Shown: one piece after another, positions 1 to 61,641 of the stretch
Layout: each line of letters begins with the position of its first letter
Numbering within the stretch: position 1 is the first letter of the stretch
Source of the DNA: a virus
Taxonomy: Duplodnaviria > Caudoviricetes
Strand: one strand, 5' to 3'
Virus record (IMG/VR): IMGVR_UViG_3300017734_000004
Location: 1-62,357 of that record
Length of the DNA stretch: 62,357 nt
Notes under the pieces: model-generated
Databases searched by the model: none
Told to the model about the DNA's origin: nothing
Seen by the model: only the letters and a program-made list of their open reading frames with translations
Made by a program: the position numbers and the translations under genes

Positions 1-123
1 GATCTTAATAAGGTTTTCGTCAAGGATTTGCTTCATGATGTCGTCGATGATTTGGTCCATGACGTTAGCGCCGTCACTCCAGTTGCAGTACCCTTTTGTG
101 GTTCGCAACCAGTTTGTGAAATC
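1..123. repeat. 123-bp direct terminal overlap, copy 1
   Basis: Identical to 62235-62357. Confidence 0.97.
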
Positions 124-411
124 GTTGTACAACTTTCGGGATGAGACGTGGTATCCTACGTACTCCACCATGTCTTCGTAGTACGGGTCCATCGTGATGT
201 CAGGGTCGTCGTCCCACCCCGTCTGCCACAGGTTGCAGAACCCGTTGTTGTAGTAGTCGTATCCGATACGAGAGATGGAACGGAGGGCTTCGGGTAGGCC
301 GTCCTCAGCTTCGCCAGACGCGGGGACGAGTTGCTTCCATGCTTCGTTGTATTCGGTTTGGTACTTGCCTTTGTTGTCCCAGTAGGACGTGGATTGTGTG
401 TCGTTTGACAT
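1..411 (-). CDS. Conserved phage hypothetical protein, 140 aa, spans the circular junction and ends at 62223
   Basis: Manual translation MSNDTQSTSYWDNKGKYQTEYNEAWKQLVPASGE...YDYYNNG...ENLIKI|GQA*. Not in the ORF track. Stop overlaps the ATG of 62008..62226 (ATGA). Confidence 0.85.
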   Translation of the reverse strand, partial: MSNDTQSTSYWDNKGKYQTEYNEAWKQLVPASGEAEDGLPEALRSISRIGYDYYNNGFCNLWQTGWDDDPDITMDPYYEDMVEYVGYHVSSRKLYNDFTNWLRTTKGYCNWSDGANVMDQIIDDIMKQILDENLIKI

Positions 412-432
412 TGAATTGAATTTAAAATTTTG

Positions 433-478
433 CGGTGCGGAAGGAATCGAACCTTCGGATAACCCAACCATTCGCACC
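433..478 (-). ncRNA. tRNA-like element with acceptor stem and T-arm but no anticodon arm
   Basis: GGTGCG-AATGGTTGGGTTATCC-GAAGG TTCGATT CCTTC-CGCACC-G; intergenic. Confidence 0.55.
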
Positions 479-492
479 TGTGGTCTATATCC

Positions 493-630
493 TTACTTAT
501 CTACCACTTTCTTTTCTTCTTTTTTCTTACGTGGCGGAATCTTCACGATGCTGATGACGTGCCTGTCCATCGCTTTGTTGTGCATGTCCGCTATCTCCTT
601 GATGAGATTGAATTGTTCGTTGTCTTTCAT
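493..630 (-). CDS. Hypothetical protein (45 aa, MKDNEQFN...)
   Basis: Start re-assigned to the ATG overlapping the upstream stop. Confidence 0.6.
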   Translation of the reverse strand: MKDNEQFNLIKEIADMHNKAMDRHVISIVKIPPRKKKEEKKVVDK

Positions 631-812
631 GAATGTGAGTTCCAAAATTCTACTTCTTCGTCGTGAATGCGGAACTCGATGCAGCCGCTGAGGTCGCCGT
701 TCCACACCTCAATCCACACTCCGTGATCGTCACGCGCTCCCATCACATGGGAGGCGTAATGGCCTTCTTCCTGTAGTGCCTTGACTGCACCTTCGCATTG
801 TTCTTGTGTCAT
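627..812 (-). CDS. Hypothetical protein (61 aa, MTQEQCEG...)
   Basis: ATGA coupling on both sides. Confidence 0.65.
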   Translation of the reverse strand: MTQEQCEGAVKALQEEGHYASHVMGARDDHGVWIEVWNGDLSGCIEFRIHDEEVEFWNSHS

Positions 813-964
813 GTCAAATCGAATGCTGTATCCTTGAAAGCCCTTTCGAGGATGAGTTTGTTGTTTCCGTCTGCGTGGTACCATGCGTCGATGAGTCGGT
901 ACATGAAGCCACCGCAGGTCTTTTGTCGGCTCTCGAGTTTTTTGTGTTGCTCAGATAAAGTCAT
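809..964 (-). CDS. Small phage hypothetical protein (51 aa; GGF...AD.NN..L..AF motif)
   Basis: Start re-assigned to MTLSEQ; tightly packed with neighbours. Confidence 0.65.
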   Translation of the reverse strand: MTLSEQHKKLESRQKTCGGFMYRLIDAWYHADGNNKLILERAFKDTAFDLT

Positions 965-965
965 G

Positions 966-1301
966 TCAGTTTGCTTTGCGTTTGATGTCCTTGCCTGTCT
1001 TGACAGACACACGTCCGTCGCTGTGCAGGTGATACTCGTACTCCTCCCACATGTCTGCTTTGATAGGTACGATGCCCCACCCTGTGTCACGGGACTTGTC
1101 AAGGTTGAACTTGTCTGCATCCCATGCGCTTGACCGCAGGAGTTGTGCAAGTTTGTAGTCAGGGTCGTCGCCTCGTGCTTCTGTGAAGGACTTGTTGAAC
1201 TCCTCAAGCCAAGGCAGGGTGGCCTCTTCGTACCCGTCCCAGTGTTTGTAGGCCTTTACAGAGGGCTGTCCCTCCACAATGATTGTTGCTCGTGTTGCCA
1301 T
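966..1301 (-). CDS. Conserved phage hypothetical protein (MxTR...YxHWDGY motif)
   Basis: MATRATI...YKHWDGY...EEYEY motif pattern recurrent in phage early regions. Confidence 0.8.
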   Translation of the reverse strand: MATRATIIVEGQPSVKAYKHWDGYEEATLPWLEEFNKSFTEARGDDPDYKLAQLLRSSAWDADKFNLDKSRDTGWGIVPIKADMWEEYEYHLHSDGRVSVKTGKDIKRKAN

Positions 1302-1302
1302 G

Positions 1303-1602
1303 TTAGCTGTATTTTTCGTCGATTCGGTTCTGTGTTTCTTCGCAGCACTCCACCCATGCCTTCATGTTGATGAGTGAGATGCGCCCATCCTCACGGGGCT
1401 TGTTGTGCTCTGCAAGGATTTCATCTTTCTTGGATATGTAGTGGTCGAGGCCACGCTGAAGGCAGTCCATGACTACCATCTGTACGAGTGCCCCGTGGTT
1501 GTTGTACCCAGTCATGAGGTGTGACATGAACTCGTCGTTGGTCATATCATTGGTTGTTTTCAGGGCCGTCTTTCCGTCTATGCTTGTGGTTAGATGCTTC
1601 AT
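1303..1602 (-). CDS. Hypothetical protein
   Basis: ORF track; operon packing. Confidence 0.7.
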   Translation of the reverse strand: MKHLTTSIDGKTALKTTNDMTNDEFMSHLMTGYNNHGALVQMVVMDCLQRGLDHYISKKDEILAEHNKPREDGRISLINMKAWVECCEETQNRIDEKYS

Positions 1603-1763
1603 GCTGTAAGGATTTTTTGGATTACGTCAAGGTTCTCGGATGTGATGGGGCCGTACTGCTGAACCTGTCGGTCAGCGAAGTACTGAACTTTTTCGGCGTT
1701 GCCCTGTGCCATGTGGTAGGCAATCTTTGGAAGATAGCCGTTGGGATGCTTCGGATTTCTCAT
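1599..1763 (-). CDS. Hypothetical protein (54 aa, MRNPKHPNGYLPKIAYH...)
   Basis: Manual translation; ATGA overlap with next gene; starts just after hairpin H1. Confidence 0.7.
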   Translation of the reverse strand: MRNPKHPNGYLPKIAYHMAQGNAEKVQYFADRQVQQYGPITSENLDVIQKILTA

Positions 1764-1776
1764 GGTTTTGAGGATT

Positions 1777-1846
1777 TAAGTTGTACTAATCAATAAGAAG
1801 AAGACTCATTCTGAGTCTTTCTTCTTCTTATTGATAGTACTACTAA
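1777..1846. promoter_or_regulatory. Long imperfect hairpin H1
   Basis: TAAGTTGTACTAATCAATAAGAAGAAGACTCA / TGAGTCTTTCTTCTTCTTATTGATAGTACTACTAA inverted repeat, followed by GGG. Confidence 0.8.
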
Positions 1847-1850
1847 GGGT

Positions 1851-2072
1851 TCATCGTCGTCGAGGAATTGTTGTCTCCCATCGTGAGGCGTGTCCGTTCA
1901 TTACGTCCGTGTAGTATAGGAGAGACATCGGTTTGTAGATTCTGTTGGCCCCGCGATAGTTCGTGATGGCCTCTTTCATCTCCGTGTGTGTGAGCTTGTC
2001 ACCCTTGGGTGTCTTGAAGGAACCGTCCGTGTACACGATCCCGTGGTACGTCTGATGCTTGATATCGCTCAT
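1851..2072 (-). CDS. Hypothetical protein (MSDIKHQTYHG...)
   Basis: Start re-assigned to the ATGA overlap. Confidence 0.65.
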   Translation of the reverse strand: MSDIKHQTYHGIVYTDGSFKTPKGDKLTHTEMKEAITNYRGANRIYKPMSLLYYTDVMNGHASRWETTIPRRR

Positions 2073-2236
2073 GCCATCCATTCTACATTGGACATGTCCC
2101 ATCCGAGTTCGGATAGCTTTTCATCGTTGTCGATTGATGGGTCCGATGTGTCCCAATCGCAGTGTACGAGATGCACGACTCGTGTCGTGTAGTCGAAGAT
2201 GGCAATTTGATTCTTGCCGAGGTGAATTTCAGCCAT
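2069..2236 (-). CDS. Small acidic hypothetical protein (55 aa, MAEIHLGKNQ...)
   Basis: Manual translation; fills the gap in the operon. Confidence 0.7.
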   Translation of the reverse strand: MAEIHLGKNQIAIFDYTTRVVHLVHCDWDTSDPSIDNDEKLSELGWDMSNVEWMA

Positions 2237-2247
2237 GATTGTGGGGT

Positions 2248-2424
2248 TTACCAGTTACGAAATGTTTGTGAAGTCTTGCCGCATTTACGCGGACTCATGT
2301 CATCGTATGCGGTGCCGTATCGGGCACCTGTCGTGGAGCATGAGGATAGGAGGATGGACACGATTGCCATCGCCGTGAACCACGCAAGCACCGCAAGTGT
2401 GGATGTGTCAAATACTTTTTTCAT
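2248..2424 (-). CDS. Small putative lipoprotein (58 aa)
   Basis: MKKVF...AMAIVSILLSS-C: basic N-terminus, hydrophobic stretch, lipobox LSSC. Confidence 0.7.
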   Translation of the reverse strand: MKKVFDTSTLAVLAWFTAMAIVSILLSSCSTTGARYGTAYDDMSPRKCGKTSQTFRNW

Positions 2425-2753
2425 TGTTCGTTGGTTTCAAATTGGTAATCGTCTTCGTCCTCCCACTCCGTGTAGTATGCGTAGTCCGTCTGGAACGCGA
2501 TGGTCATGAGGTCATGGTCGTCCTCCTTGTTTTGCAGGGCTTGGTCTCGCGCTGTCGCGAACTCATCCCATGCCGTGGGGTCTTGTAGTTCCTCGGCAGT
2601 CACGTTCTCGATGTCGTGCAGGATGGTGTCCCTGTCCTTACGGCACTCTGCCAAGGCATCCTTCTCGTGCTTGGCGTAGAACACGCCGCATCCGAAGACC
2701 CATCCTTTGTTCATCCCTTCGCCCGTCACGGAGCATTGTCTTGCGTACTTCAT
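2421..2753 (-). CDS. Acidic hypothetical protein
   Basis: ARQCSVTGEGM..GW...YYTEWED; ORF track. Confidence 0.75.
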   Translation of the reverse strand: MKYARQCSVTGEGMNKGWVFGCGVFYAKHEKDALAECRKDRDTILHDIENVTAEELQDPTAWDEFATARDQALQNKEDDHDLMTIAFQTDYAYYTEWEDEDDYQFETNEQ

Positions 2754-2762
2754 GTGTGTTGT

Positions 2763-3080
2763 TTAGAGGTCAATGATTACGCCCTTCGATTCCAGGGCAT
2801 CGGTAATAAATTCAGGGAGTTCGAAGCACCCATCGTACCCCACAAGGCGTACACTTCCATCCTCATCGTGTGAGGTCTCGAGTACACCCTCTGCATAGAA
2901 GCGGTCGCCACCTGACTCAAGGTCGTAGGTCTCGTACCATCCACCATACTGATGGTCGGGGTCAATGGACACCGAAGAATCCATCACGACGTTGGTCGCT
3001 CGGTCGTGGTCCACGTCGTATGCCGTGGTCATTGCCACGTGTGGTAGCGTGGTCTTGAACTTGTGTGTGAACTTCATCAT
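2763..3080 (-). CDS. Acidic hypothetical protein
   Basis: YAEGVL...LVGYDGCFELP; ORF track. Confidence 0.75.
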   Translation of the reverse strand: MMKFTHKFKTTLPHVAMTTAYDVDHDRATNVVMDSSVSIDPDHQYGGWYETYDLESGGDRFYAEGVLETSHDEDGSVRLVGYDGCFELPEFITDALESKGVIIDL

Positions 3081-3283
3081 TCTTGGGTTTCAGAGTCAGA
3101 CAAATCGTGGCACATGGATGCAAGGACTTCTCGCAGGTCGTTCGTGCCCAGGTAGTAAAAGACGTGTTCAATCATGGCATTCGGTCCCATGACCTCTTTG
3201 ATGTCATCGAATGCGTAGCCCAGTTCGGACTTGGACATGTACCCACTCTCCGTGAGCTTTGTGTGAAGGTTGGTGAATTGCAT
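3077..3283 (-). CDS. Hypothetical protein
   Basis: ORF track; coupled start and stop. Confidence 0.65.
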   Translation of the reverse strand: MQFTNLHTKLTESGYMSKSELGYAFDDIKEVMGPNAMIEHVFYYLGTNDLREVLASMCHDLSDSETQE

Positions 3284-3462
3284 TATCCGAGAAGGTTATC
3301 GAGTTGGGATTCAAGTCGGGCAGCCGCCGCATCTGCCTTACGAGCGATTTCCATCTGCACTTGGATGGCACGTTTGGTGGCTTCAATCAGGTCTGACTTT
3401 TGAGCCATGAAGTCGGCAAAGTCGCGCTCCGCCTCGACGAGGATGATGTTTGATTCTGACAT
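3283..3462 (-). CDS. Small coiled-coil protein (59 aa, MSESNIILVEAERDF...)
   Basis: Manual translation; TAATG overlap; starts after hairpin H2. Confidence 0.7.
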   Translation of the reverse strand: MSESNIILVEAERDFADFMAQKSDLIEATKRAIQVQMEIARKADAAAARLESQLDNLLG

Positions 3463-3484
3463 CGGGAAAGGATTTGATGGTTGT

Positions 3485-3547
3485 TAAGAGGGGTTTGTAA
3501 TATATATCTCTCATGTTCCATGAGATATATATTACTAACCTCTCTAA
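3485..3547. promoter_or_regulatory. Long imperfect hairpin H2
   Basis: TAAGAGGGGTTTGTAATATATATCTCTCATG-TTC-CATGAGATATATATTACTAACCTCTCTAA. Confidence 0.85.
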
Positions 3548-3563
3548 AGGTTGGTGGATTCGG

Positions 3564-3809
3564 TTAGGCTGACTGGGCTTTGAGCCACTCTTCCTTGCTA
3601 CGTAGGTACGCTTCCTGCGGCGTCTCACCTGCTTGGATGACCAACTTCTCACACGTCTGCCGTGACGGACGGGATGGTCTGTCTGACTTTGCCGCCATCT
3701 CTGAACGGATGAAGGTCGTGGATACGTGGTTACGTACTTGACGTACATCTGTCCACTCGGTCTTAGTCATACGCTTGGCTCGGCGTGCCTTCTGTGCAAG
3801 AGTTTGCAT
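3564..3809 (-). CDS. Basic hypothetical protein
   Basis: ORF track; AATTCAATTCAA leader. Confidence 0.7.
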   Translation of the reverse strand: MQTLAQKARRAKRMTKTEWTDVRQVRNHVSTTFIRSEMAAKSDRPSRPSRQTCEKLVIQAGETPQEAYLRSKEEWLKAQSA

Positions 3810-3826
3810 GGTGATTGAATTGAATT

Positions 3827-3880
3827 GTTACTGACCCCCCAAGGGGGGGGTTTCGGCTACTGAAGCCTCGTCAGAGTAAC
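3827..3880 (-). ncRNA. Type I hammerhead ribozyme
   Basis: GUUACU-CUGACGA-GGCU(UCAGU)AGCC-GAAA-CCCCCC(CCUU)GGGGGG-UC^AGUAAC: full catalytic core, three perfect stems, GUC cleavage triplet. Confidence 0.92.
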
Positions 3881-3891
3881 TGGGTGGGGTG

Positions 3892-4137
3892 TTAGCCCTT
3901 GTTGATGAGTTCAATCAACTGAGCCTTTGTCATCTTGCTGATGTTCTTAGGCTTTGACTTGGTTGCCTTCGCCTTAGGCACCACGACTTCCAAGGCTTCG
4001 ACCTCTGAAGTGAGTTGGGCCAACAGCTTGAGAGCCAAGGCTTTCTTCTCCTTGGTAGTGTAGTAACTAGCCTTGTTGATTGCTGACTTGGTAGCAGACA
4101 TCAAGGACTGGGGGGTGGTGGTGGATTTTGCCATCAT
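3892..4137 (-). CDS. First gene of the - strand arm; basic protein with a C-terminal Rho_N/HeH-like motif
   Basis: C-terminus NISKMTKAQLIELIN. Confidence 0.6.
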   Translation of the reverse strand: MMAKSTTTPQSLMSATKSAINKASYYTTKEKKALALKLLAQLTSEVEALEVVVPKAKATKSKPKNISKMTKAQLIELINKG

Positions 4138-4145
4138 TTAAGGAT

Positions 4146-4214
4146 TAAGATGTTGTAAGTAATAAAAGAAGATTCGTAAACGAATCATCTTCTTTTATTA
4201 CTAACAACCTCTAA
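4146..4214. promoter_or_regulatory. Long imperfect hairpin H3
   Basis: TAAGATGTTGTAAGTAATAAAAGAAGATTCGT-AA-ACGAATCATCTTCTTTTATTACTAACAACCTCTAA. Confidence 0.85.
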
Positions 4215-4237
4215 GGGGTCGGAGTCTGGGGTCATGG

Positions 4238-4261
4238 ATGAGTACTACTGGTAGTACTCAT
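4238..4261. repeat. Perfect 11-bp inverted repeat
   Basis: ATGAGTACTAC-TG-GTAGTACTCAT. Confidence 0.8.
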
Positions 4262-4681
4262 ATAGGAGGAGGGAGTTGTCCTCGGGCCGCTTATAGCTGG
4301 GGGAGCCAAACCCATAACTAACCGCATATACCTACACATGTACGGTTACTTAACGTGGGGTACGGCAAGTGGCTGTCGCACAGCGCGGTACAAAAAGCTG
4401 AAAGTATACAGCTAACCGCGTATGTGTGCGGTAGATAGGTATCATAAGCGCGTTTCGGGTAGGCGTGCGTGGCGTGCGCATATATATATAATCCCCTTCA
4501 CCTCTATGACTCAAAAAATTTTCAGCCCAAATTTTTCTTCAGTCCCTTTTGCGCCCTTTTTTCTGCGGTTGCGCGATTCTTCTCCGATCAGTCTGATTTG
4601 TGTAAGCCTTATGATTACTAATCACTTACACATCTACACCTAGACTGTTTGTTTACTCTTGTTTTTGTCATTTTTCTTGGT

Positions 4682-4689
4682 TAACTTTG
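4682..4689 (+). promoter_or_regulatory. Bacteroidota -7 promoter box at the start of the + strand arm
   Basis: TAACTTTG with TTG about 20 nt upstream. Confidence 0.6.
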
Positions 4690-4875
4690 CTGTAGTTAGA
4701 AGCGAAACCAGAAAAACCTAACGATTCGTTTTGTTTTTAGTGTATTCGTAGAGAATCACTGGTAGTTCGTTTTAATTGGTTCTTAAGAGACAGCTGCATC
4801 CTGTTTCTTTGGCACATAATCATCATTATACCGCATTATCTTGGTGATCACGGGGGCTGCTGATAGCTTAGCCCC

Positions 4876-5136
4876 ATGAAAACAGTAGCATTCTTACTAT
4901 CAGTCTTGCTTGTGGGCTGCGTCTCAGTGCCCACTAAGGTCTACACTCACCCAGAGAGGTACAGTTGCGACCTTATCATACCTACATCTTGGAATGGGTC
5001 ACATCCCGTAGAGTACTTTGAACACAGGCTGTCTGTTGGTCAAACATACCAGGACTATTTGGGCATGGAGTATACCTTGGTGGCAACAGATCAAGACACA
5101 GTATTCTTGCTCAGGGTAGAGGTTGCCCGTCCGTAA
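4876..5136 (+). CDS. Putative lipoprotein
   Basis: MKTVAFLLSVLLVG-C lipobox. Confidence 0.7.
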   Translation: MKTVAFLLSVLLVGCVSVPTKVYTHPERYSCDLIIPTSWNGSHPVEYFEHRLSVGQTYQDYLGMEYTLVATDQDTVFLLRVEVARP

Positions 5137-10397: not shown

Positions 10398-10670
10398 ATG
10401 GTTAGAACAGAGCTATACACAACTGGTGGTGAGTTCCGTAGGCCTGATGGTACGGAATATATCGGTGCATATCACATTCACTTTAATCGTGGAGCTATGG
10501 TTGGTGGGTTTCATAAAGTAGAAGCTCATGATCGACTTAGGCCTATTACAAGAAGCGCTGATTTACTGGTTCAATCAACCATGAAGGAACTTGCAAACGA
10601 AACATCAAATAGAATACGATCTGTCTATTCATCTTCTGGATCATCAGGAGGTGGGTCGGGAGGATATTAA
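10398..10670 (+). CDS. Hypothetical protein (LYTTGGEF...YIGAYH)
   Basis: ATG start re-assigned. Confidence 0.65.
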   Translation: MVRTELYTTGGEFRRPDGTEYIGAYHIHFNRGAMVGGFHKVEAHDRLRPITRSADLLVQSTMKELANETSNRIRSVYSSSGSSGGGSGGY

Positions 10671-10684
10671 TTAAATACATTCAA

Positions 10685-11269
10685 ATGAAAACCTTAGACT
10701 TATTTGTCGTAGAGTTAGAAAAACAAATCAAAGACACAATAACAACAAAAGAAGGGTTGACCCTGTATGTTGATTCTCGCTTCAACGAGTTTGAACATAG
10801 GGTAACAGAGGGCCCTGTTGTGTCTCCACCCATTAAACATGACACTGGCGTTGAGGCTGGTGACACCTTATACTTTCATCACCTCGTTGTAATGAATGAA
10901 GGTCAGATTTTAACTGGAGAAGAAAATCATTATCTTGTGCGCTATGACCCTAGTCATACAATTAACAATCAAGCCATTGCACACAAGAACAAGGACGGTG
11001 AGATTAAGCCCTTGGCTGGTTGGACCCTGCTTGAGGCTGTTGAACAAGAAGAACTAAAGACCAAGTCAGATGTCATCGAAGTGGTCGAACTTAAAAAGAA
11101 GTTACCTACAAAGGGTCGTGTCGCTTTTACGGCTCCTTGGATTGAGGAGATGGATTTAAAGGTGGGTGACGTTGTAGGTTTCAAAGAGAATCGAGACTAC
11201 AGGATTACCATTGATGGTAAAGAGTATTACAGAACAAGACTAGATGACCTTCTATACGCTGAGAAATGA
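10685..11269 (+). CDS. Co-chaperonin GroES-like protein with two GroES-fold units
   Basis: TKEGLTL..G.VV..VEAGDTLYF and IKPLAGW..KGRV..LKVGDVV.F..IDGKEYY. Confidence 0.75.
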   Translation: MKTLDLFVVELEKQIKDTITTKEGLTLYVDSRFNEFEHRVTEGPVVSPPIKHDTGVEAGDTLYFHHLVVMNEGQILTGEENHYLVRYDPSHTINNQAIAHKNKDGEIKPLAGWTLLEAVEQEELKTKSDVIEVVELKKKLPTKGRVAFTAPWIEEMDLKVGDVVGFKENRDYRITIDGKEYYRTRLDDLLYAEK

Positions 11270-29702: not shown

Positions 29703-30619
29703 TGGCACTTGAAGACGTCGTATACAATGGCTTAAGAGTTGATGCCACAGAAAGCACTGAGGCCATGAACTATTTGCCTCTGTTCCAGGTTATTGCAGAC
29801 TACATTATTACTATGGATGGTGACGACTACACCAGCAATGTGTCAGACGTAGCTATTCAAAACATCGCTATGCGCGGCATTAGAGAGCTGGGGTTTGATG
29901 TAACCTCTCGCGTCCGCTCTCTTAAGCGATCGGTAGAATCAAACAACACTGTCATCTTGCCAGAGGATTTTGTGGACATCGTCAAGCTTGGCGTGGTAGA
30001 TGGCGATGGTGTCATCAGAGTTTTTAAGCAAAACAAAAACCTTAACTATTCTAGAAAGAATAAGGTCAATACTGACAGTGGTGGGAATCTCGTAGGCACT
30101 GGTGACACCTCTGATCAGTACAACTTAAGCCCACATCCACTTGCACCCAACAGACTTCCAGACAGAGAAGACGACAAGGGCGCAACCAGCTCTTCAACAC
30201 CAGACAGCGGTGATTTAGACTTCTACGTTTTTGAAAACTACCTGTACCAGGGTGGGCTTGGAAGGCTTTACGGATTGGGTGGTGGTCACGGACCAGGAGA
30301 ATACAGAATTAATCTTGATCAAAACAGAATTGAGATTGCCACGGATTCTCAGACAACAGACGTGGTGATTGAATACATTGCCGACCAGGCAAGAACAGCC
30401 AATCCTGTTGTCCACGTGTATGCAGAGGAAGCCTTGCGGTGCTACATCTACTACAAGTTGTGCGAGAGAAAGTCTACTGTGCCCCAGGGTGAGAAGATGA
30501 GAGCTCGCGCTGAATATTACAACGAGAGAAGAAAGGCTAAGGCTAGAATGTCAGGCTTCAGCAAAGAAGAAGCGCTGCACACCATTCGCAAGAACTTCAA
30601 GCAAGCACCTAAGTATTAA
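29702..30619 (+). CDS. Tail tubular / ring protein
   Basis: RGIREL.FD, LPEDFV..VK, IEYIAD, EEAL..YI.Y. Confidence 0.7.
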   Translation: MALEDVVYNGLRVDATESTEAMNYLPLFQVIADYIITMDGDDYTSNVSDVAIQNIAMRGIRELGFDVTSRVRSLKRSVESNNTVILPEDFVDIVKLGVVDGDGVIRVFKQNKNLNYSRKNKVNTDSGGNLVGTGDTSDQYNLSPHPLAPNRLPDREDDKGATSSSTPDSGDLDFYVFENYLYQGGLGRLYGLGGGHGPGEYRINLDQNRIEIATDSQTTDVVIEYIADQARTANPVVHVYAEEALRCYIYYKLCERKSTVPQGEKMRARAEYYNERRKAKARMSGFSKEEALHTIRKNFKQAPKY

Positions 30620-33600
30620 TGATTGATAAGGTCATACCCCAAAGGCTTAACTCTGACGTAGATTCAAGGTTTCGCCCATCAACCGATATGATTGATGCGC
30701 TGAACATTGCGTTTCAAGAGAGTTACAATTCTGACGCTGGGGCAGCTGGCAATGGCGCATCAAATAATTTCTCAGGCGATGCAGGGGTAATCAAGCCCAT
30801 GCCGTCAAACAAAGACATTGAGGCCATTACGGGTATGACCTCCCTGATTGACAACAGCACAAATGTCAGGGTGATTGGATCTGTGTCCGACGAGGTCTAC
30901 AACGTAATCTACTTCTTCGCCTGGTCAGACAATGTTGATCAAATGGGTGTGTATGCATGGGATCAAGACAAAGTCTTGCCTGGTACTCACGGTGCTGGTG
31001 ATTACGTCAAGGTATATGCATCACCAAAGTTTGACTTCCCCAGCGACGGATTTGTCAAAGGAGACGTAGTACATGTAGGTCAGCGTAAAAATGTTGATGA
31101 CGAGGATAGAGTCCGAAATGTAATTCTATACTTTACTGACAACAAAAACGAACCAAGGAAGCTGAACATCTACGATGTGATGGAGGCAAACCTTGGAAGC
31201 TACAATGACATCGACATCTTGGACATGATCACCGCATGCCCAAGGACTCCACTGACTCCTATCTCGTTTGAATTTGATTTTGATCCAGCAAGAGCTACTT
31301 CAAATTTCACGAGCCTACCTGGTTTGCAGTTTGCTTATCAGCATGTTTACTCAGACAACGTAGAGAGCGCCCTGTCTACATACTCAAAGCTTGCTGTGCC
31401 TCCAGCCTACTTAGCTCTAGGTCAGGTTACAGGCAGCGTGAATCTTCAGAACAGGTGTGTGCTAACAATACCAAGGGGCTCTAGAGAGGTTGACCGAATC
31501 CGTGTTTTAGTTAGGTATGGAAACCTTGGCTTGTGGAGGCTTATTGATGAGCTCAAGGAGTTGCCAGCAACAGACAGTGTAGAGTACAACTTCTACAATG
31601 ACCGCATCCTTATTCCTGTGTCAGAGAACACAACAGGCATGCCATACAGCAACTTGCCTAGGATTGCACAAGCACAAAGCGTGGTCTCTGACAGGCTCTT
31701 GTACGGAAACTATGTAGAGAGCTACCCAGAGGTTGAAGCGTCTGCAAACATTGACCCCGTCTACAATGGCACACCTCGTCAAGGTGATGTAATTGAGATT
31801 GATGTTGTGCCTGTGATAAATCAGCTTTATGCAAGGTCAGATAGTGAGAGCACTACCACTGAGCGCATCTACAAAAATCTTGGAACAAATAGGGTTGCTG
31901 GATATCAGATTAATCTTGATGGTGTTCCGCAAGACTTTTTGGAAGCGGGAACAATTATACAGGTAGACTTCACTACTGAGCCTGATAATAATTTTCACTT
32001 CTATAACCAACACAACTCGTACCACGCAAGCAGAGAGAATGGCTTTTATGGTGGCGAGAACAATGCTACTGGTGCAGACCTTGACAATGTCAACGATGCC
32101 TTAGTTGATGTAATTGCATCGGGCGATAGTGCTGGTGACTTTGTTGACAACGTAAATCAATACAGCAGGGGTCGCCAATACTTTGGAAAAAATCAAGGCG
32201 TTAAGTTTATTGACGGCCTAAACAAGTGGAAGTACCAGGGATGGGGTAGTAATGCTTTGCCGTATGGTGATGTCTTGGGATTCGAGAATGGCGGAACTGT
32301 AGATGTTGAATATGGCACCTCTGCTGCCAACCCATTTATCTTGGAGTCTAAGCCTTTGCGCTTTGCCGTTACGTTTAAAACGATGTACGACACGGATGGC
32401 CCAAGAGTTCTGGTGCAGCAGGCTTTGTACCACTACCTCACAGGGGCCCCGATGCCTGTGAATAGCGAGAGCCAAGCATTCGCATCTATTGATGAGCTGC
32501 CAGACCCCGTAGATACTGCGTCTTATGAGATTAATTTGCTTCTTGACAACCAAGACACCATCAACGCGCAATCTGGCAACGACTACAGGAAGCATTTGAT
32601 TGTTGGGTTAACGACTCCCTCAGGGTCACCTTCTAATACAGACGAACCAATTGGTTTTTTCATTGTCAACGAGGCCAAGGTAGAGATGAAGCTGAAGGCC
32701 TTCACATACATGGAGGACCAGTATGACACAGACCCAGGGTCAGCAAACTGCTATCTTGGTCTGGATCTAAGCAGTCTGACTGATGTCGATGTGATGACGT
32801 GCGTGCCTTATGTGCCCGTGGGTCAGAAAATTGCCATGAAGATTAGGAGCGGACCTTTTAACGTCGATAACCCATGGTATGGTGTAGGCCCAGCAAACAT
32901 TGTCAATGGCAATATCGCATATTGGACTGTGTTTTCTCGTGAAATTATGCGAGACTCTATTCCCGAAGACCTCAATATTTATGATACGGGCGACGCAATC
33001 AGCTGGCTTGGACCTGTAGAATACACCGAGAGCGGGGGTGTTAATGATGCGATTATGGGGGATGACACGAGGAATATGTATTTCTTCACCACCGTTCCTC
33101 AATACGCGTCAGTCTTTGCAGAACAAAGTTTAGCCTCGGGCAACGATTTCGCGGGTTCAGGGATTGACCCAGTTCAAAATTTAGGGCTGGCGATGTGCCC
33201 CGCAAACTTTAACAACCCTCGAGGCCAATACTGTCTTGGCTATATGCTTGATAGTGGTGAAACTTTTGCAGAGCCAATAAAACTGATTAATACCAGCGAT
33301 GAAATTTATGACTATGCCGAAAGCGAGCTCAATGTAATTGGCTCAACGCTTGTCAATGAGTGCGCTGTCTTTTCGTTAGTTGATGGCGAGGGTGGCCCAG
33401 GCTTTACCAAGAACAGAACTGGTGTTGGAGAGTTTGTTTCTTGGGGAAGCATCTCCCCATACGTCCTATTCAAAGGCGACATCCACAATCGTTGGGTCAT
33501 CAACGTACAGGAACTGCCCTATACAGGGTACGTTCCCAACCCTATTGGAGCAGGCTCTATTGCTGCTGCCCTAGACCTTAGCGATAGCGACCCAGGCGAC

Positions 33601-36384
33601 ACCCCAGCTATCGGTCAAGAAGATGACGGATGGACTAAGAGCAAGGGCTTCCTCAAGAGCTACAGAAACCTTGACATTAACACCCCATACAACTCTGTAG
33701 ATAGGGATTATTTCCAGGGCGCTACAGCCGACCTCACATATGATCACCCCATTCCCGATACGGTGAATACGTGGATTGAGATCACCGTGCTGTCAACATA
33801 CATCAGCGGAATTACTGGGCTCTATTACCCTCGGTCGTTTAAAACAAATGCCAATCACGATTTTGGAATTGTGTACTATGACCAGAGGGGCAGGTCAGGA
33901 AACGTCAACTACTTAGGAAACACGTTTGTTAGAGGCTATAGCAATGCTGACAGGGGTCTCGATGCTAAGGGTAGAGTTGATGTGCTGTTAAATCTGACCA
34001 GCAACCCACCTGACTGGGCAACTCAGTATCAGATTGTATACAGCCCGAACAGCACTGTTGGGGACTTTGTGCAGTACACCACGGGTCCTGCATTTGTGGC
34101 AACAGTCGCAGAAACAGACCCATCGGCTGGCAATGAGGCCTTGATCTATGTGAATCTAGGTCACCTTCAGGGGGTAAATAATGTTTCTTACAGCCATGCC
34201 TTTGGTGCCGTCAACAATGATGGCGGAAAAGATTTGTACACTCATCAGCAAGGCGACAGGCTGCGCATCTTGTACTACACAGAGTCCGATGGTGACGATC
34301 TGGTGTATCCAAGAGAGTATGTCTTTGATATTGTTGATGTCGTTACGCTTACTAGGAATAGGGTCGATAACATTTTGTACAATGAAGGGACTGCATCTAC
34401 AATATCTCCCGCAAAGTCTGGGCAGTTTCTTGTACTAAAGAACAATCCAAACGCCACTGGCTTTACATACACGGATGTTTTAAGCTCATACAATCAAGCG
34501 GATAGTACTCAAGATGTAGATGGTGCAACTGCAATCAACTATTGGAACAACAGGACTGTCGTTGAGATATTTACTCCAAAGAAAGTTCAAGACTTTGACC
34601 AAAGGTTTTACTACGAGATTGGAGAGAAGTATGACGTAACTGTCACAAGCCAAGGAAATCCATTGCATTCTCAATCATCAATCCTTTTGAAGGATGGGGA
34701 TGTCTGGTGGAGAAGGGTGCCTGTCAACCTTCAAGAATACGATGAAGATTCAAGTCGATTCCTTACTTTGTTTTCTGCAGCAGGTACTGGGCAGCAAGAT
34801 GAAGATGAAAGCCTTCCAGCTTTTAACACTCAGGTGTTGGAAACTATGGCGTTTACAGATGTAATCCCTGGATGCAAGACGCTGGACTGGGGTAAGCCTA
34901 AGGTTATTGTGCCAGGGTCTCAGTCTTTGTACAAGAGATCGTCTTTGACGTACTCAGAAAAGAACGACTACGCATCTAGAGCAAACAAGTACACCATCTT
35001 CAATGCTCCGTCACTGAACTTCAAGGACTTACCCAACGAGTACGGAGCAATCAACTACATCCTTAACGACTACGACAATGCTGTGGTTATCCAGGAAGAT
35101 AAGGCCAGCTCTATTCCAGTAAACAGAAACATCATCTCTACTGCAGGGGGCCAACAGTCTCTCGTTGCATCTAAAGATGTGCTGGGTACTCAGAAGTTTT
35201 ATGCTGGTGACTACGGTGCTGACAACAACCCAGAGAGTGTTGTTAGAGCAGGTGAGGCTATCTACTTCGCTCACAAGGGCAGAAGAGAGGTATACAAGCT
35301 GACCAGAAATAAAGGACTAAAGGTTATCTCAAAGGCGAATATGAAGGCGCACTTTAACAATCTGTTTGTGCAAGCCATTGAGGCAGAAGCAAGGGGAGAC
35401 GGTAAGGTTCGTGTCGTGTCTGGATATGACCCTCTGCGAGATGAGTACATCATCTCAGTCCACAACATGAAGGACTACTCAAGCAGCGAAGCAAACTACA
35501 ACCAGCTTACTGGTGTGTTTGACGGCGTTGGCATCGTGATTGATGACTCTGATGAGGGAGGCGTATTTGAACCTGGTCCCGTGGTGCCAGTTGATTTTGA
35601 CGGAGATGGCAATATTATTATTCCAGGATGCACTAACTCGTTGGCTTCAAACTACAACCCCGAAGCCAACACCGACGACGGATCATGTGTCTTTGGACCA
35701 GCTCCTGATGATGACGACGGGGTTACAGAGATAATCCCTGGCTGCACATATCCCAATGCCACGAATTACGACCCGACAGCCACTGTTGACGACGGTTCTT
35801 GCATCTTCCCAGATGCCGATGATCCAATCAGTGACTTCGACTCTGCTCGTCCTGTCATCCAATTGATCCCTTCTGATGTCTTAGATTTTGGAACTGTTGA
35901 AACCACTGAATCAATACAAAAGCTACTTGTAATTAAAAATGTAGGTGAAGGTGTTTTGAGAATTACAGGGTTTGAGCTAGTTTCTCTTGTCACAAACAAC
36001 ATCCCAGCACGATTTTTATTGACTGGCCCAAATGCTAACCCAACTGGAGCGAACCCTATAGTAATTGAAAGCAATAGTCAAAAGGTAATACCAGTTGTTG
36101 TAACACCTACCGAACCTGGGTTTGACGTTTCTGCCAATCAAGATTTCATCCTTAGTGAGCTTAGAATCTCAAATAACGACGCTCCAAAAGACGTCTTGTT
36201 TTTGGCAAACTTTAAAAATGATGTCGTCAGGCCTGATGATGACGATCCCGTGAGACCTGATGATGGCGATCCAGTGAGACCTGATGATAGCGGACCAGTA
36301 AAACCAGACGACAATGAACCTGTTGGTCCGATTGGCAGTGTTATGGGGCTGGGCGTCAGCGGCAATAGCTTTGTTCCTGTATAA
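30619..36384 (+). CDS. Tail stabilisation (nozzle) protein with C-terminal Cys repeats, Ig-like domain and PDD repeats
   Basis: LN.DVD.R...IDALN, YFTDN.NEPRKLN, RLLYGNY.E, GIVYYD..GR, YG...NPES, GYDP...EY. Confidence 0.8.
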   Translation: MIDKVIPQRLNSDVDSRFRPSTDMIDALNIAFQESYNSDAGAAGNGASNNFSGDAGVIKPMPSNKDIEAITGMTSLIDNSTNVRVIGSVSDEVYNVIYFFAWSDNVDQMGVYAWDQDKVLPGTHGAGDYVKVYASPKFDFPSDGFVKGDVVHVGQRKNVDDEDRVRNVILYFTDNKNEPRKLNIYDVMEANLGSYNDIDILDMITACPRTPLTPISFEFDFDPARATSNFTSLPGLQFAYQHVYSDNVESALSTYSKLAVPPAYLALGQVTGSVNLQNRCVLTIPRGSREVDRIRVLVRYGNLGLWRLIDELKELPATDSVEYNFYNDRILIPVSENTTGMPYSNLPRIAQAQSVVSDRLLYGNYVESYPEVEASANIDPVYNGTPRQGDVIEIDVVPVINQLYARSDSESTTTERIYKNLGTNRVAGYQINLDGVPQDFLEAGTIIQVDFTTEPDNNFHFYNQHNSYHASRENGFYGGENNATGADLDNVNDALVDVIASGDSAGDFVDNVNQYSRGRQYFGKNQGVKFIDGLNKWKYQGWGSNALPYGDVLGFENGGTVDVEYGTSAANPFILESKPLRFAVTFKTMYDTDGPRVLVQQALYHYLTGAPMPVNSESQAFASIDELPDPVDTASYEINLLLDNQDTINAQSGNDYRKHLIVGLTTPSGSPSNTDEPIGFFIVNEAKVEMKLKAFTYMEDQYDTDPGSANCYLGLDLSSLTDVDVMTCVPYVPVGQKIAMKIRSGPFNVDNPWYGVGPANIVNGNIAYWTVFSREIMRDSIPEDLNIYDTGDAISWLGPVEYTESGGVNDAIMGDDTRNMYFFTTVPQYASVFAEQSLASGNDFAGSGIDPVQNLGLAMCPANFNNPRGQYCLGYMLDSGETFAEPIKLINTSDEIYDYAESELNVIGSTLVNECAVFSLVDGEGGPGFTKNRTGVGEFVSWGSISPYVLFKGDIHNRWVINVQELPYTGYVPNPIGAGSIAAALDLSDSDPGDTPAIGQEDDGWTKSKGFLKSYRNLDINTPYNSVDRDYFQGATADLTYDHPIPDTVNTWIEITVLSTYISGITGLYYPRSFKTNANHDFGIVYYDQRGRSGNVNYLGNTFVRGYSNADRGLDAKGRVDVLLNLTSNPPDWATQYQIVYSPNSTVGDFVQYTTGPAFVATVAETDPSAGNEALIYVNLGHLQGVNNVSYSHAFGAVNNDGGKDLYTHQQGDRLRILYYTESDGDDLVYPREYVFDIVDVVTLTRNRVDNILYNEGTASTISPAKSGQFLVLKNNPNATGFTYTDVLSSYNQADSTQDVDGATAINYWNNRTVVEIFTPKKVQDFDQRFYYEIGEKYDVTVTSQGNPLHSQSSILLKDGDVWWRRVPVNLQEYDEDSSRFLTLFSAAGTGQQDEDESLPAFNTQVLETMAFTDVIPGCKTLDWGKPKVIVPGSQSLYKRSSLTYSEKNDYASRANKYTIFNAPSLNFKDLPNEYGAINYILNDYDNAVVIQEDKASSIPVNRNIISTAGGQQSLVASKDVLGTQKFYAGDYGADNNPESVVRAGEAIYFAHKGRREVYKLTRNKGLKVISKANMKAHFNNLFVQAIEAEARGDGKVRVVSGYDPLRDEYIISVHNMKDYSSSEANYNQLTGVFDGVGIVIDDSDEGGVFEPGPVVPVDFDGDGNIIIPGCTNSLASNYNPEANTDDGSCVFGPAPDDDDGVTEIIPGCTYPNATNYDPTATVDDGSCIFPDADDPISDFDSARPVIQLIPSDVLDFGTVETTESIQKLLVIKNVGEGVLRITGFELVSLVTNNIPARFLLTGPNANPTGANPIVIESNSQKVIPVVVTPTEPGFDVSANQDFILSELRISNNDAPKDVLFLANFKNDVVRPDDDDPVRPDDGDPVRPDDSGPVKPDDNEPVGPIGSVMGLGVSGNSFVPV
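36226..36321 (+). repeat. Four 24-bp tandem coding repeats (V[RK]PDDxxP)
   Basis: VRPDDDDP VRPDDGDP VRPDDSGP VKPDDNEP. Confidence 0.85.
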
Positions 36385-46122: not shown

Positions 46123-46559
46123 GTGAAAAGAAAAAAATTAAAGACACCAAGCTAGGCGCGTGGCTGTCAGAAAAAGCGCCCCAAGTGTTGGGTGTTGTTG
46201 GAGACCTCCTGCCTGATAGCGGTGGTCTAGGTGTGGTCAAGAACCTGATTGACAAAGACCCAAAGGTGGACTCGCAAGAGGCACAAAGAATCATTGATGC
46301 TGAGGTTCGGTTTCAAGAGAACGTGACCGAGCGCTGGAAAGCCGACATGGGTAGCGACGTCAAGCTCGCTAAGCTGATTAGACCAATCACTTTGATTTGC
46401 CTCATGGGTATGTTCATGATCACCATGATGATTGACAGCATGGACAACGTGGCTTTCAACGTCAAGGACTCATATGTATCTTTGCTTGAGCTGCTTATGC
46501 TGACTGCATTTGGTGCATACTTCGCAGGCAGAACCATCGAAAAGAAAGCCAAGACATGA
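46119..46559 (+). CDS. Holin (3TM / gene-transfer-release type)
   Basis: VTERWKADM.SD..L.K.IRP, two TM helices, GAYF.GR..EK. Confidence 0.8.
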   Translation: MSEKKKIKDTKLGAWLSEKAPQVLGVVGDLLPDSGGLGVVKNLIDKDPKVDSQEAQRIIDAEVRFQENVTERWKADMGSDVKLAKLIRPITLICLMGMFMITMMIDSMDNVAFNVKDSYVSLLELLMLTAFGAYFAGRTIEKKAKT

Positions 46560-48700
46560 GAGCGCTGCTGATTTTCTTGATGCCTTTGTTTGCCACTGCT
46601 CAGACAGGGTGGGTTGCTGTTACGATTCAAGCCGATCAGTACGGAAACGAAACCTCTTGGTATATCAAAGACTCAACCAACACTCTTGTTGCTGGGTCTC
46701 CTAGCTTAATATACAACTTTGCCTATGTGGAGGCCTTTCTGCCTCTGCCTCTGGGTGATTACACGTTTACCATCAATGACTTTTTTGGAGATGGTATCTG
46801 TTGCACCTACGGTGAAGGTTGGTTCTCACTGAATACATGTGAGCTAGACACCGCTGTCTACGACTTTGACAGTGAACAGATGGTCATTCCGTTTGAGGTG
46901 CTGGCCTGCCCCCCGCCAATCTTTGGTTGCATGCAGCAGGGTGCCTTGAACTACCACCCCTGGGCTACGGCACCATCTCCGTGCAACTTCCCTGCCGCGC
47001 AGTGTGACCCAGGAAACAACAACATTCTTGTCACAGTCACCCCCGACACTTACCCTGCTGAAATTAGCTGGGAGCTGATGACGCTACCCGACAGTACGAT
47101 TGCTGCTTCTAGGGATGACTACTCGATCACAGGTTTGGAGGAGCTGGACGCGGTATGCCTCCCTGTAAACTCTGACTTTGTGGTCAACGTATACGACTCC
47201 TTTGGGGACGGCATGTGTGGCAGTTGTTACGGTGGTGTAGACGGGAGCCTGTCAGTTACCACCCTGTGTGGAGACACTCTGTACTATGTCGGGGACCAGA
47301 CCCAATACCAGGTGGCATCAAGTGATATCATCACAATTGAACCATGCTTCCCTCCCATCCCACAGGGATGTACAGACCCTTGGTTCACGGAGTACGATCC
47401 CAACGCTGTCATTGATAATGGAAGCTGCCAGACAGAGGTCATCCTCGGATGCACTGACCCTGAGGCCATCAACTTCAACGAAGATGCCAACACACTGGAG
47501 ACAGCAGATAACTGTGACTTTACTCTGACACTTACAGACGGAGCAGGTGACGGATGGTTTGGTAGCTGGATCGGAGTGCAGCAGGGCGACGAGCTCTTTG
47601 GTCCATTCACTATGCATCCTAACGACGGATTCGAAAAGGAGATTCAGATACCACTGTACTCTGCGGAAGAGATCAAGGTCATGTTCTTTACTGAAGGTAA
47701 CGCTGAGACCACGGCCAGCCAGTGTGGATTCTACTTTGACGGACCTAACGGAGTGTTCATGGAGGGCGGAACCAACCCATGGTCTGACGCTATCAAGAGG
47801 TTTCCGTTTAAGTACAAGGGTACGCCTGTGTGCGGAGACTTCTGTGAGGCCGCCATCGTAGGATGCACAATAGACTTTGCCTGCAACTTTGACTCACTGG
47901 CAAACGTCCCAGGCAACTGCACGTTCCCTATCGAATACTATGGATGTGACAACGATTGCATTAACGACACCGATGGGGATGGGGTGTGTGACGAACTTGA
48001 GGTGACTGGATGTCAAGACCCATCTGCTTACAACTACGATGCGACGGCTACTGATGCTGGTGAGTGCGAGCCTGTGGTATTCGGATGCACAGACCCTACT
48101 ATGTTCAACTACAATGAGTCTGCCAACACCGAGAACAACAACTGTATCCCATACATCTACGGATGCATGGACATGGCGGCATTGAACTACGACGAGGATG
48201 CAAACACAGAACTGGAGGGCTCCTGCATTTCAGTTGTTGAGGGATGTATGGATCTCAATGCATACAACTTCAACGAAGACGCCAATGTTCCTGCCAACGA
48301 GGAATGCAACTATGATGCAGGTTGTATCACTGGACCAGGGAATCCCTACTGGTTAAACAATGGTTGTTACGCATGGATTATTGAGGTAGACCCGTACTGC
48401 TGTGAGGTGGCATGGGATGCCACTTGCGTTGACCTGTATGAGTACTGTGAACAGGGGTGGCCTCAGAATATCACAGAGACAACGCGCAACATCTCAGTGT
48501 ACCCCAACCCCACGAGTTCCTTGCTGAACATCAACGCGCCCACTGGTTCAACAACATCAGTGCATGATGCCTTAGGTAGGCTTGTGATCTCGGCTACCAA
48601 CGAGACAGTCATTGACCTAAGCGCACTACCCCAAGGACTCTACAACGTGAGAATAGAATACGAACAAATCATTGTAAATAAAAAAATTACAAAGTCATGA
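46556..48700 (+). CDS. Secreted Cys-rich protein with a T9SS type A C-terminal sorting domain
   Basis: Signal peptide ...ATA-Q; D.Y..E.SW / D.FGDG modules; GC.D..A.NY repeats; VYPNP...IDLS.LP.GLY......KKITK. Confidence 0.88.
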   Translation: MRALLIFLMPLFATAQTGWVAVTIQADQYGNETSWYIKDSTNTLVAGSPSLIYNFAYVEAFLPLPLGDYTFTINDFFGDGICCTYGEGWFSLNTCELDTAVYDFDSEQMVIPFEVLACPPPIFGCMQQGALNYHPWATAPSPCNFPAAQCDPGNNNILVTVTPDTYPAEISWELMTLPDSTIAASRDDYSITGLEELDAVCLPVNSDFVVNVYDSFGDGMCGSCYGGVDGSLSVTTLCGDTLYYVGDQTQYQVASSDIITIEPCFPPIPQGCTDPWFTEYDPNAVIDNGSCQTEVILGCTDPEAINFNEDANTLETADNCDFTLTLTDGAGDGWFGSWIGVQQGDELFGPFTMHPNDGFEKEIQIPLYSAEEIKVMFFTEGNAETTASQCGFYFDGPNGVFMEGGTNPWSDAIKRFPFKYKGTPVCGDFCEAAIVGCTIDFACNFDSLANVPGNCTFPIEYYGCDNDCINDTDGDGVCDELEVTGCQDPSAYNYDATATDAGECEPVVFGCTDPTMFNYNESANTENNNCIPYIYGCMDMAALNYDEDANTELEGSCISVVEGCMDLNAYNFNEDANVPANEECNYDAGCITGPGNPYWLNNGCYAWIIEVDPYCCEVAWDATCVDLYEYCEQGWPQNITETTRNISVYPNPTSSLLNINAPTGSTTSVHDALGRLVISATNETVIDLSALPQGLYNVRIEYEQIIVNKKITKS

Positions 48701-53847: not shown

Positions 53848-53850
53848 GCC

Positions 53851-60862: not shown

Positions 60863-60873
60863 TGTGTGTTTTG

Positions 60874-60947
60874 CGATCCCACAGGGACTCGAACCCCGAA
60901 CCTGCACATTAGAAGTGTGCTGCTCTATCCAGTTGAGCTATGGGACC
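60874..60947 (-). tRNA. tRNA-Arg(TCT); CCA not encoded
   Basis: Acceptor GGTCCCA/TGGGATC, D-arm GCTC..GAGC, anticodon arm GCACA-CTTCTAA-TGTGC, T-arm CGGGG-TTCGAGT-CCCTG. Confidence 0.93.
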
Positions 60948-61577: not shown

Positions 61578-61641
61578 TAAGAGGGGTTTGTAATATATCT
61601 CTCTCAATTACATTGAGAGATATATTACTAAACCTCTCTAA
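61578..61641. promoter_or_regulatory. Long imperfect hairpin H4
   Basis: TAAGAGGGGTTTGTAATATATCTCTCTCAAT-TAC-ATTGAGAGATATATTACTAAACCTCTCTAA; near-copy of H2 with compensatory changes. Confidence 0.85.

Follow-up and report, generated by a model that had tools for sequence, protein, structure and literature searches.

Candidate RNA punctuation by hairpins, a hammerhead and tRNA-type elements in the early gene block of a podophage genome

Introduction

The 62,357-nucleotide (nt) virus record IMGVR_UViG_3300017734_000004 (Duplodnaviria; Caudoviricetes), whose whole stretch we call the window, carries on its minus strand a densely packed early and replication gene block in which each of the larger intergenic gaps is filled by one structured element, namely a long hairpin (H1, H2 and H4, with a fourth copy, H3, in the leader), a type I hammerhead ribozyme, a tRNA-Arg(TCT) or a non-decoding tRNA-like minihelix. 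The hairpins and the hammerhead show covariation across related phages, the elements are asymmetric with respect to strand and confined to early modules, and at one slot elements of different types replace each other. From our point of view, these RNA elements probably segment the long early/replication transcript or transcripts, with hammerhead, tRNA-type and hairpin cutting acting together, and we assign this reading a probability of roughly 0.55. In the following, we lay out the evidence for it, together with the points that weigh against it and three other explanations for the hairpins.

Results

The early block was delimited with a map of the open reading frames (ORFs) and comprises 32 genes that run on the minus strand from 4137 through the junction of the circular map (1/62234) to 53851. 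Neighbouring genes overlap at 19 junctions, are 1-11 nt apart at four, and are separated by 17 and 20 nt at two more. Six gaps exceed 40 nt (82, 101, 87, 81, 74 and 92 nt) and are occupied, in this order, by the hammerhead, H2, H1, the tRNA-like element, H4 and tRNA-Arg(TCT), while H3 precedes the first gene (Table 1). This map confirmed a first-pass annotation of the sequence, which had described tight packing of the minus-strand genes with a structured element 8-22 nt before an ATG in each of the larger gaps. With all six gaps above 40 nt occupied in this way, the distance between element and ATG leaves no space for a promoter. The same annotation had reported that the gaps lack an intergenic TAnnTTTG box, and a box scan agrees: the motif occurs 35 times in the window (26 times on the plus and 9 times on the minus strand), which is at chance level (36.6 expected), none of the copies lies in an element-bearing gap, and the sole minus-strand copy within the block is found at 55903 inside a coding region. 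Sites of the sigma-70 type are not enriched in the gaps either, and the hairpins themselves have none. On the plus strand, several structural genes are directly preceded by TAnnTTTG boxes.

A second recurrent feature of the block is a leader motif, AATTCAATTCA, all four exact copies of which are on the minus strand (Table 1). AATT-rich variants of this leader stand after the hammerheads and tRNA-like elements of relatives, and leaders of the AATTCAATTCA type may serve translation starts in a host that does not use Shine-Dalgarno pairing.

H1 to H4 are the top four inverted repeats of the whole 62 kb, and none of them is located in the plus-strand structural module. Their stems comprise about 25-28 pairs including mismatches, and the flanks (CCCTTAG and CTTAA, also present in H1) as well as the outer stem are common to all four. 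The folds have z-scores between -5.8 and -6.8 (H3, -5.78 at -27.7 kcal/mol; H2, -5.97; H1, -6.53 at -31.7 kcal/mol; H4, -6.75), and an equal stability was reached in 0 of 200 shuffles. Relatives were retrieved via the GP88 gene and via the hammerhead, and related hairpins were found at 22 further places in them, hence at 26 including the window. A covariance model built from seven hairpin copies (R1) recovered 20 of these 26 places at E<=1, with H1 and five others missed. In three complete genomes (G000, G001 and G002) and in one that is 73% complete (G004), every R1 match falls into the early module and none into a structural module. The score was higher on the sense strand at 19 of the 20 places; in the window, R1 reached 88.5 bits on the minus versus 47.6 bits on the plus strand for H2, 101.2 versus 49.0 bits for H4, and 28.9 bits on the minus strand for H3.

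Pairs and mismatches were counted over 19 sense-strand rows (18 of them distinct). Compensatory changes are evident at pair 17-87 (GC in 8 rows, TA in 10) and at pair 19-85 (TA in 8, AT in 5, GC in 5), whereas a U·U mismatch at stem position 3 is conserved in 17 of the 19 rows and an A·A or A·C mismatch at stem position 8 in 14, with three further rows gapped at this position. In addition, an AACCC box is restricted to the 5' side of the hairpins. Since the pairs covary, the AACCC box is one-sided and the sense strand scores higher, we conclude that the hairpin is a base-paired, asymmetric element oriented with transcription. RNAalifold predicted no pairs at all on a MAFFT alignment of 22 hairpins because the hairpin sub-families were misaligned, and the covariance model was used instead. 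An alternative small hairpin between the AACC box and the 5' arm was dropped, as it is possible in H2 and H4 but not in the copies of L002 or L001 (L numbers denote related loci). The Rfam search at gathering thresholds (window and 11 loci) returned tRNAs only, and in an E-value search of positions 1-5000 the hairpins drew only chance matches of the microRNA type. The hairpins form an uncatalogued RNA family.

With about two turns or more of double-stranded RNA (dsRNA) interrupted by mismatches, H1 to H4 have the length and imperfection expected of processing hairpins for ribonuclease (RNase) III and are in this sense built like substrates of the enzyme; that they are cut is something we infer from this architecture. 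The RNase III family TIGR02191 was not detected in the phage and is present in the control genome of Bacteroides thetaiotaomicron.

The hammerhead has an intact CUGACGA / GAAA / GUC core and three stems (6, 4 and 6 bp) arranged as in type I, and the predicted cut after the C at 3833 would leave a 23-nt leader. Our own scanner returned three hits in the window and 12 related loci (both strands), all of them at homologous places, while a pattern scan of IMG/VR retrieved the hammerhead in nine stretches; the core also occurs in G002. Among eight distinct sequences, 135 of 135 cells are paired and seven of 17 pairs show changes on both sides, a result matched by 0 of 500 shuffles. This count concerns stems II and III, as the core and stem I had been set by the search pattern. 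Each copy lies behind a stop codon, the 12-20 nt up to the following ATG contain an AATT-rich leader, and the eight aligned copies keep the loop II form UnAnU. A pseudoknot between loop II and the 3' leader was considered and dropped: judged by eye, the sequences of L001, L014 and L016 allow it, and those of the window and L002 do not. Judged from its intact core and its compensatory changes, we regard the hammerhead as real. With a looser pattern, a hammerhead was also found in the cultured Flavobacterium phage elemoA_7-9A (NC_055852.1), where stem I reads GGCAAA/UUUGUC instead of GUUACU/AGUAAC. It lies at 17341-17296 in a 150-nt gap of the early block between gp67 and gp69. The annotated 35-amino-acid (aa) ORF gp68 (NC_055852.1 17275-17382, corresponding to L029 7276-7383) overlies it on the opposite strand, and gp68 is probably not a gene.

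The tRNA-Arg(TCT) folds into a canonical cloverleaf. The element upstream of ATG 411 is reduced to a 6-bp acceptor stem, a 16-nt linker and a T arm carrying GGUUCGAUUCC (5-bp stem, loop UUCGAUU), followed by the tail GCAA. It consequently has the acceptor-plus-T-arm composition of a t-element or minihelix substrate, whereas a cloverleaf cannot be formed, since the linker takes the place of both the D and the anticodon arm; the elements of relatives, eight in number, likewise do not form cloverleaves. No thermodynamic signal accompanies the element in the window (z -0.25), so that it is supported by its motif. ARAGORN, run with introns and transfer-messenger RNA allowed, reported 0 genes in the nine tRNA-like elements, and Rfam no tRNA. 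A scan for the combination of T arm and acceptor stem in 256 kb gave 13 hits as opposed to 0.06 per shuffle set (100 shuffles), namely four true tRNAs and the nine tRNA-like elements, every one of them located in an early module and on its sense strand. The latter are all intergenic and are followed by NCUA or NCAA, an AATT-rich leader and an ATG. The elements of the window and of L015 are stubs of 43-47 nt, and the others (L001, L003, L004, L005) contain an insert of 50-70 nt. In these four loci (L001 10616-10731, L003 2006-2100, L004 4517-4611 and L005 1701-1812), the acceptor stem is GUGAGUG/CACUCAC, the T arm is normal and the insert has a conserved stretch, ACUGCUUUUnAUUUGGUU; in three of them the element stands directly behind the GP88 gene. 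A stacked acceptor stem and T stem-loop is a known minimal substrate of RNase P, and it is plausible that the stubs are signals for RNase P and RNase Z.

Whether elements substitute for each other at orthologous gaps had been put forward in the first-pass annotation as a check of its proposal, and the slot behind the GP88-family gene shows that different types do so: it holds the tRNA-Arg in the window, a tRNA-like element in L001, L003 and L004, another fold in L006 and nothing in seven loci, with one locus being cut off. The L006 fold (10612-10690) resembles a three-way junction (-23.4 kcal/mol, z -2.9) and has no match in Rfam. At the border of the g30/g31 homologues, a hairpin is found in L003 and L004 and none in the window. 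It follows from these differences that orthologous gene borders can exchange one element type for another, or gain and lose elements. The succession H3-g1-hammerhead-(x)-g2-hairpin is preserved in the window and in L013, L002, L001, L016 and L014, with H3 orthologues before the g1 homologue and a hairpin in the slot behind g2 (the position of H2) in all of these five loci, and a hairpin precedes the GP88 homologue in the window and five of 12 related loci. Overall, the elements are real, conserved and strand-specific, and both in this phage and in its relatives they are limited to the early module.

Table 1. Positions of the elements and of other features in the window, in block order where applicable.
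Feature	Position	Strand	Approximate distance to next ATG (nt)	Context and support
H3	4146..4214	-	8	leader, before first-gene ATG (4137); arms 4148-4173/4187-4212, 92% complementary
Type I hammerhead	3827..3880	-	17	between g1 (stop 3892) and g2 (ATG 3809); core and covariation
H2	3484..3548	-	21	between g2 (stop 3564) and g3 (ATG 3462); 27-nt arms
H1	1777..1848	-	13	between g9 (stop 1851) and g10 (ATG 1763); 16-nt perfect arms inside longer stem
tRNA-like minihelix	433..479	-	21	before ATG 411; motif-based
H4	61578..61641	-	14	base overlaps TAG stop of 29-aa ORF; before GP88-family ATG (61563)
tRNA-Arg(TCT)	60873..60947	-	10	8 nt after GP88 stop, before ATG 60862; Rfam 64.9 bits and ARAGORN
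Leader motif AATTCAATTCA	412-422, 3816-3826, 60005-60015, 61564-61574	-		4 exact copies, directly before block ATGs
Conserved non-coding region	4215..4560	-		upstream of H3; six-phage alignment, 71% mean column identity
Whole window	1-62,357			first 123 nt (1-123) identical to last 123 nt (62235-62357)

The conserved non-coding region upstream of H3 (Table 1), presumably the early promoter and leader, contains a small covarying hairpin of 9-10 bp (4238-4261, z -3.71) that is followed by an invariant TGACC. Invariant blocks GGGGATTATAT and GGACAAC are also present in this region.

Since its first and last 123 nt are identical, the window closes into a circle of 62,234 bp, and IMG/VR classifies the record as complete, with terminal repeats. 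It is a complete, circularly closed 62.2-kb podophage genome with kinship to Flavobacterium and Cellulophaga phages. The 123-nt repeat falls within gene g16 (411 -> 62223), which spans the junction of the circle; it is therefore more probable that the ends are an overlap from the assembly of a circular or permuted genome than that they are physical terminal repeats, and a gene across the junction fits circular permutation. The terminase is 42-49% identical to homologues of the Flavobacterium 'elemo' phages, of Cellulophaga phages and of an uncultured podovirus, while blastn of positions 1-4700 against GenBank phages gave no match. As far as sequence can tell, terminase kinship, a BT4734-like primase domain and a type IX secretion sorting domain in a tail-region protein point to a host from the Bacteroidota.

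Structural genes (terminase, portal, tail) occupy the plus strand from 4876 to 53847. The early block begins with about 19 small ORFs annotated without function and continues with the GP88-family gene, a PDDEXK nuclease, a primase-helicase and an endonuclease up to a sigma-70-family factor as its last gene. The Pfam GP88 match covers residues 55-231 of the long ORF, in agreement with a start at 61563. The terminal sigma-70-family gene (54720-53851, minus strand) encodes regions 1.2, 2, 3 and 4. The two gene blocks converge with 3 nt between their final stop codons (53847-53851) and show no terminator at this point. The sorting domain (Por_Secre_tail, E 2.4e-10) forms the C-terminus of a 714-aa protein encoded at 46556-48700 on the plus strand, which also has a calcium-binding-like DTDGDG motif.

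Discussion

Hammerheads and embedded tRNAs are established cleavage elements, and due to this biochemistry both must cut the block, provided that it is co-transcribed. We propose that transcription of the minus-strand early module would start in the conserved region upstream of H3 and yield one or a few long RNAs, that the hammerhead would cut itself after C3833, and that host RNase P and RNase Z would release tRNA-Arg and the tRNA-like minihelix in the manner of plant mitochondrial t-elements. A host dsRNA-specific RNase (RNase III) would cut the four hairpins, which are about 25-28 bp long and have conserved single mismatches, or the hairpins would at least cap and thereby protect the 3' end of the upstream piece. 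The short, unstructured A/U-rich leader behind each element would then suit a translation start without Shine-Dalgarno pairing as it occurs in Bacteroidota. Co-transcription, hairpin cutting and any effect on stability or translation are conclusions drawn from this arrangement, and that 5'-OH versus 5'-P ends tune stability or translation is pure speculation.

One could further imagine that the phages of this Bacteroidota-infecting clade have a modular punctuation with three cut signals of unrelated mechanism, in which minimal hammerheads, non-decoding tRNA-like stubs for RNase P/Z and hairpins read by means of their mismatches and AACCC box are interchangeable cassettes with a common A/U-rich leader, which would give single-gene mRNAs of differing end chemistry and, at the same time, joints for swapping early genes. 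We consider this extension tentative and rather doubtful.

A number of observations weigh against segmentation of the transcript. Regarding the gaps, no structure was found in those of 37 and 32 nt at g22/g23 and g27/g28, the AATTCAATTCA copy at 60005 has no structured element upstream of it, and a cut at tRNA-Arg would leave a leader of only about 10 nt. In the conserved region at 4215-4560, neither a TAnnTTTG box of the Bacteroidota type nor a sigma-70-type site was recognised on the minus strand. The sequence occurs in four sequencing runs of unspecified kind, all from one study and kept as contigs, and none is listed as an RNA run. The hammerhead reached the gathering threshold of no Rfam family; the best match, RAGATH-1-hammerhead, scored 18.6 bits with 56.3 needed and spans model positions 26-77 only. 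It may also be slow, given its minimal form, its open stem I of 6 bp and the lack of a consistent tertiary partner for loop II, which was not seen by eye in the flanks of the aligned copies. As for the hairpins, none occurs in the more distant relatives L006-L012 or in phage elemoA, the opposite strand gives the more stable fold for H2 and H4 (-33.4 versus -26.1 and -35.8 versus -28.5 kcal/mol, respectively), and the tips of H1 and H3 resemble intrinsic terminators. Lastly, the pair cells are made up of 418 Watson-Crick, 3 G·U, 8 A·C and 8 other combinations, and because the stems are almost purely Watson-Crick, the pairing cannot be assigned to RNA rather than DNA; a comparison of G·U with A·C cells as an indicator of strand or RNA level gave no signal.

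The terminator-like tips bring up the idea that the hairpins act on the RNA without being cut, as attenuators or partial terminators by which expression is graded along the operon, 3'-exonuclease barriers or cistron insulators, and that only the hammerhead and the tRNA-type elements cleave. A terminator consensus scan lists the tips of H1, H2 and H3, not that of H4, and the tips of H1 and H3 consist of a stem (for example GAUUCG-UUUA-CGAAUC) followed by UUCUUUUAUU. The tails are U-rich in H1 and H3, while that of H2 is GAUAUAUAUU. The stems are very stable, an A-rich 5' arm is typical of bidirectional terminators, and conserved mismatches together with a one-sided AACCC box would fit any RNA-binding factor. 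However, H2 and H4 have no U tract after the sub-stems that match the conserved part of the family, and the flanks and outer stem that all four hairpins have in common, including the outer 10-12 pairs, lie past the terminator-like tail, where a terminator would not need them. Moreover, if transcription stopped efficiently 8-21 nt ahead of an ATG and no promoter followed, most of the block would be silenced, and with it the replication genes and the sigma factor. We therefore regard an action on uncut RNA as unlikely.

The Watson-Crick purity of the stems would equally suit hairpins that work mainly as DNA, either as recombination linkers which shuffle early cassettes in the way of the PeSLs already published for T4-type phages (PMC2839356 and PMC4122927) or as small mobile palindromes, with any RNA effect being secondary. 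In line with this, H4 of the window, L013:14191 and L016:1974 are nearly identical (101-103 bits) and yet follow different genes, a hairpin is present at g30/g31 in L003/L004 and absent from the window, and the gene content between hairpins varies: many of g3-g19 lack a counterpart in the loci, whereas homologues of the flanking g1, g2 and GP88 are present there. Simple recombination linkers, on the other hand, need no pairing, and here the pairs covary, the mismatches are held at fixed positions and the asymmetric element favours the sense orientation, as described above. The hairpins also have their slots and their downstream leader in common with elements that only make sense as RNA (hammerhead, tRNA-like) and, unlike PeSLs, carry no attached promoter. 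To our mind, a role mainly in DNA is quite improbable.

It is also conceivable that the hairpins are promoters, read as extruded DNA by a phage-borne RNA polymerase similar to that of phage N4, with one start per gene group. The block has no host-type promoter box, each hairpin stands just upstream of an ATG, and among the virion-type proteins of the phage there are two giant ones (1921 and 1752 aa), of which one has a DFDGD motif. N4 promoters, however, have stems of 5-7 bp and loops of 3 nt, quite unlike the stems of 25-28 bp, conserved mismatches and loops of 11-15 nt found here. Within the part of the window's proteins that was scanned, no RNA polymerase was found, and solved structures include no relative of the 1752-aa protein. 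The 1921-aa protein (30619-36384, plus strand; DFDGD at residue 1659) was nearest to crAss muzzle proteins in a language-model search (score 0.84, to be taken as a lead only), and for this reason an RNA polymerase appears less likely than a structural protein that has a calcium-binding motif. In addition, the phage-encoded sigma-70-family factor points to the use of the host polymerase. Promoter hairpins of this kind thus seem very improbable.

Segmentation of the early transcript, as we favour it, has partial counterparts in several known systems. The early region of T7 contains the RNase III signals R0.3, R0.5, R1, R1.1 and R1.3. Like these, H1 to H4 are long, imperfect, mismatched hairpins that are repeated and similar within one genome and stand in early polycistronic gaps before the next cistron. 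They differ in that the host belongs to another phylum, that there is no sequence likeness and that ribozymes and tRNA-type elements use the same slots as the hairpins. Furthermore, the mismatches are single (U·U, A·A), fixed and accompanied by the 5' AACCC box, whereas T7 has an asymmetric internal loop, and cleavage is a prediction in the present case.

With respect to the hammerhead, Perreault et al. 2011 (PMC3088659) proposed that hammerheads process long phage transcripts into single-gene mRNAs, and they report in vitro cleavage for three tandem hammerhead arrangements as well as a hammerhead variant of a haloarchaeal virus 13 nt before a start codon. The location in an intergenic gap of a phage operon, a few nt upstream of a start codon, is the same here. 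In contrast to those tandem arrangements, there is a single, minimal type I hammerhead per genome that falls below the Rfam thresholds and occurs alongside two other element classes. This hammerhead group may already be contained in the Dataset S1 alignments of that paper.

For the tRNA-type elements, the closest described use is that of plant mitochondrial t-elements, next to the tRNA punctuation of animal mitochondria (PMC1920247 and PMC3790967). There, tRNAs and non-decoding tRNA-like folds between coding regions let RNase P and RNase Z define mRNA ends, and the arrangement in the window is alike. It is different from the mitochondrial t-elements in that it belongs to a bacterial phage, that the elements are either cut down to acceptor and T arm or enlarged by the 50-70-nt insert, and that their cleavage is predicted. 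The T4-type PeSL cassettes (PMC2839356 and PMC4122927) also are repeated stem-loops that border small, variable early ORFs with variable content in between. They reportedly include an early promoter, in contrast to the hairpins of the window, which have no promoter-like box and lie 8-21 nt from an ATG.

In the literature searched, with subscription journals outside its coverage, neither this hairpin family nor mixed punctuation in phages was found. Hammerhead processing of phage operons is already in print, and the hairpin family and the acceptor-plus-T-arm stubs are uncatalogued.

Overall, if the elements cut, the early block would be a bacterial-virus counterpart of mitochondrial tRNA punctuation, of T7-style hairpins and of ribozyme cleavage within a single operon, in a phylum in which mRNA processing and Shine-Dalgarno-free translation have been little studied. 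The analysis contributes two RNA families that have not been catalogued, the hairpin with its mismatches and the stubs made of acceptor stem and T arm, and indicates that annotation pipelines miss such elements or lay spurious ORFs over them, as in the case of gp68 of elemoA_7-9A. Since this cultured phage, whose host is Flavobacterium sp. BAL314, has both the hammerhead and an embedded tRNA-Ala, part of the idea is directly testable. As natural, insulator-like parts, the elements may also be of practical interest for the building of operons in Bacteroidota.

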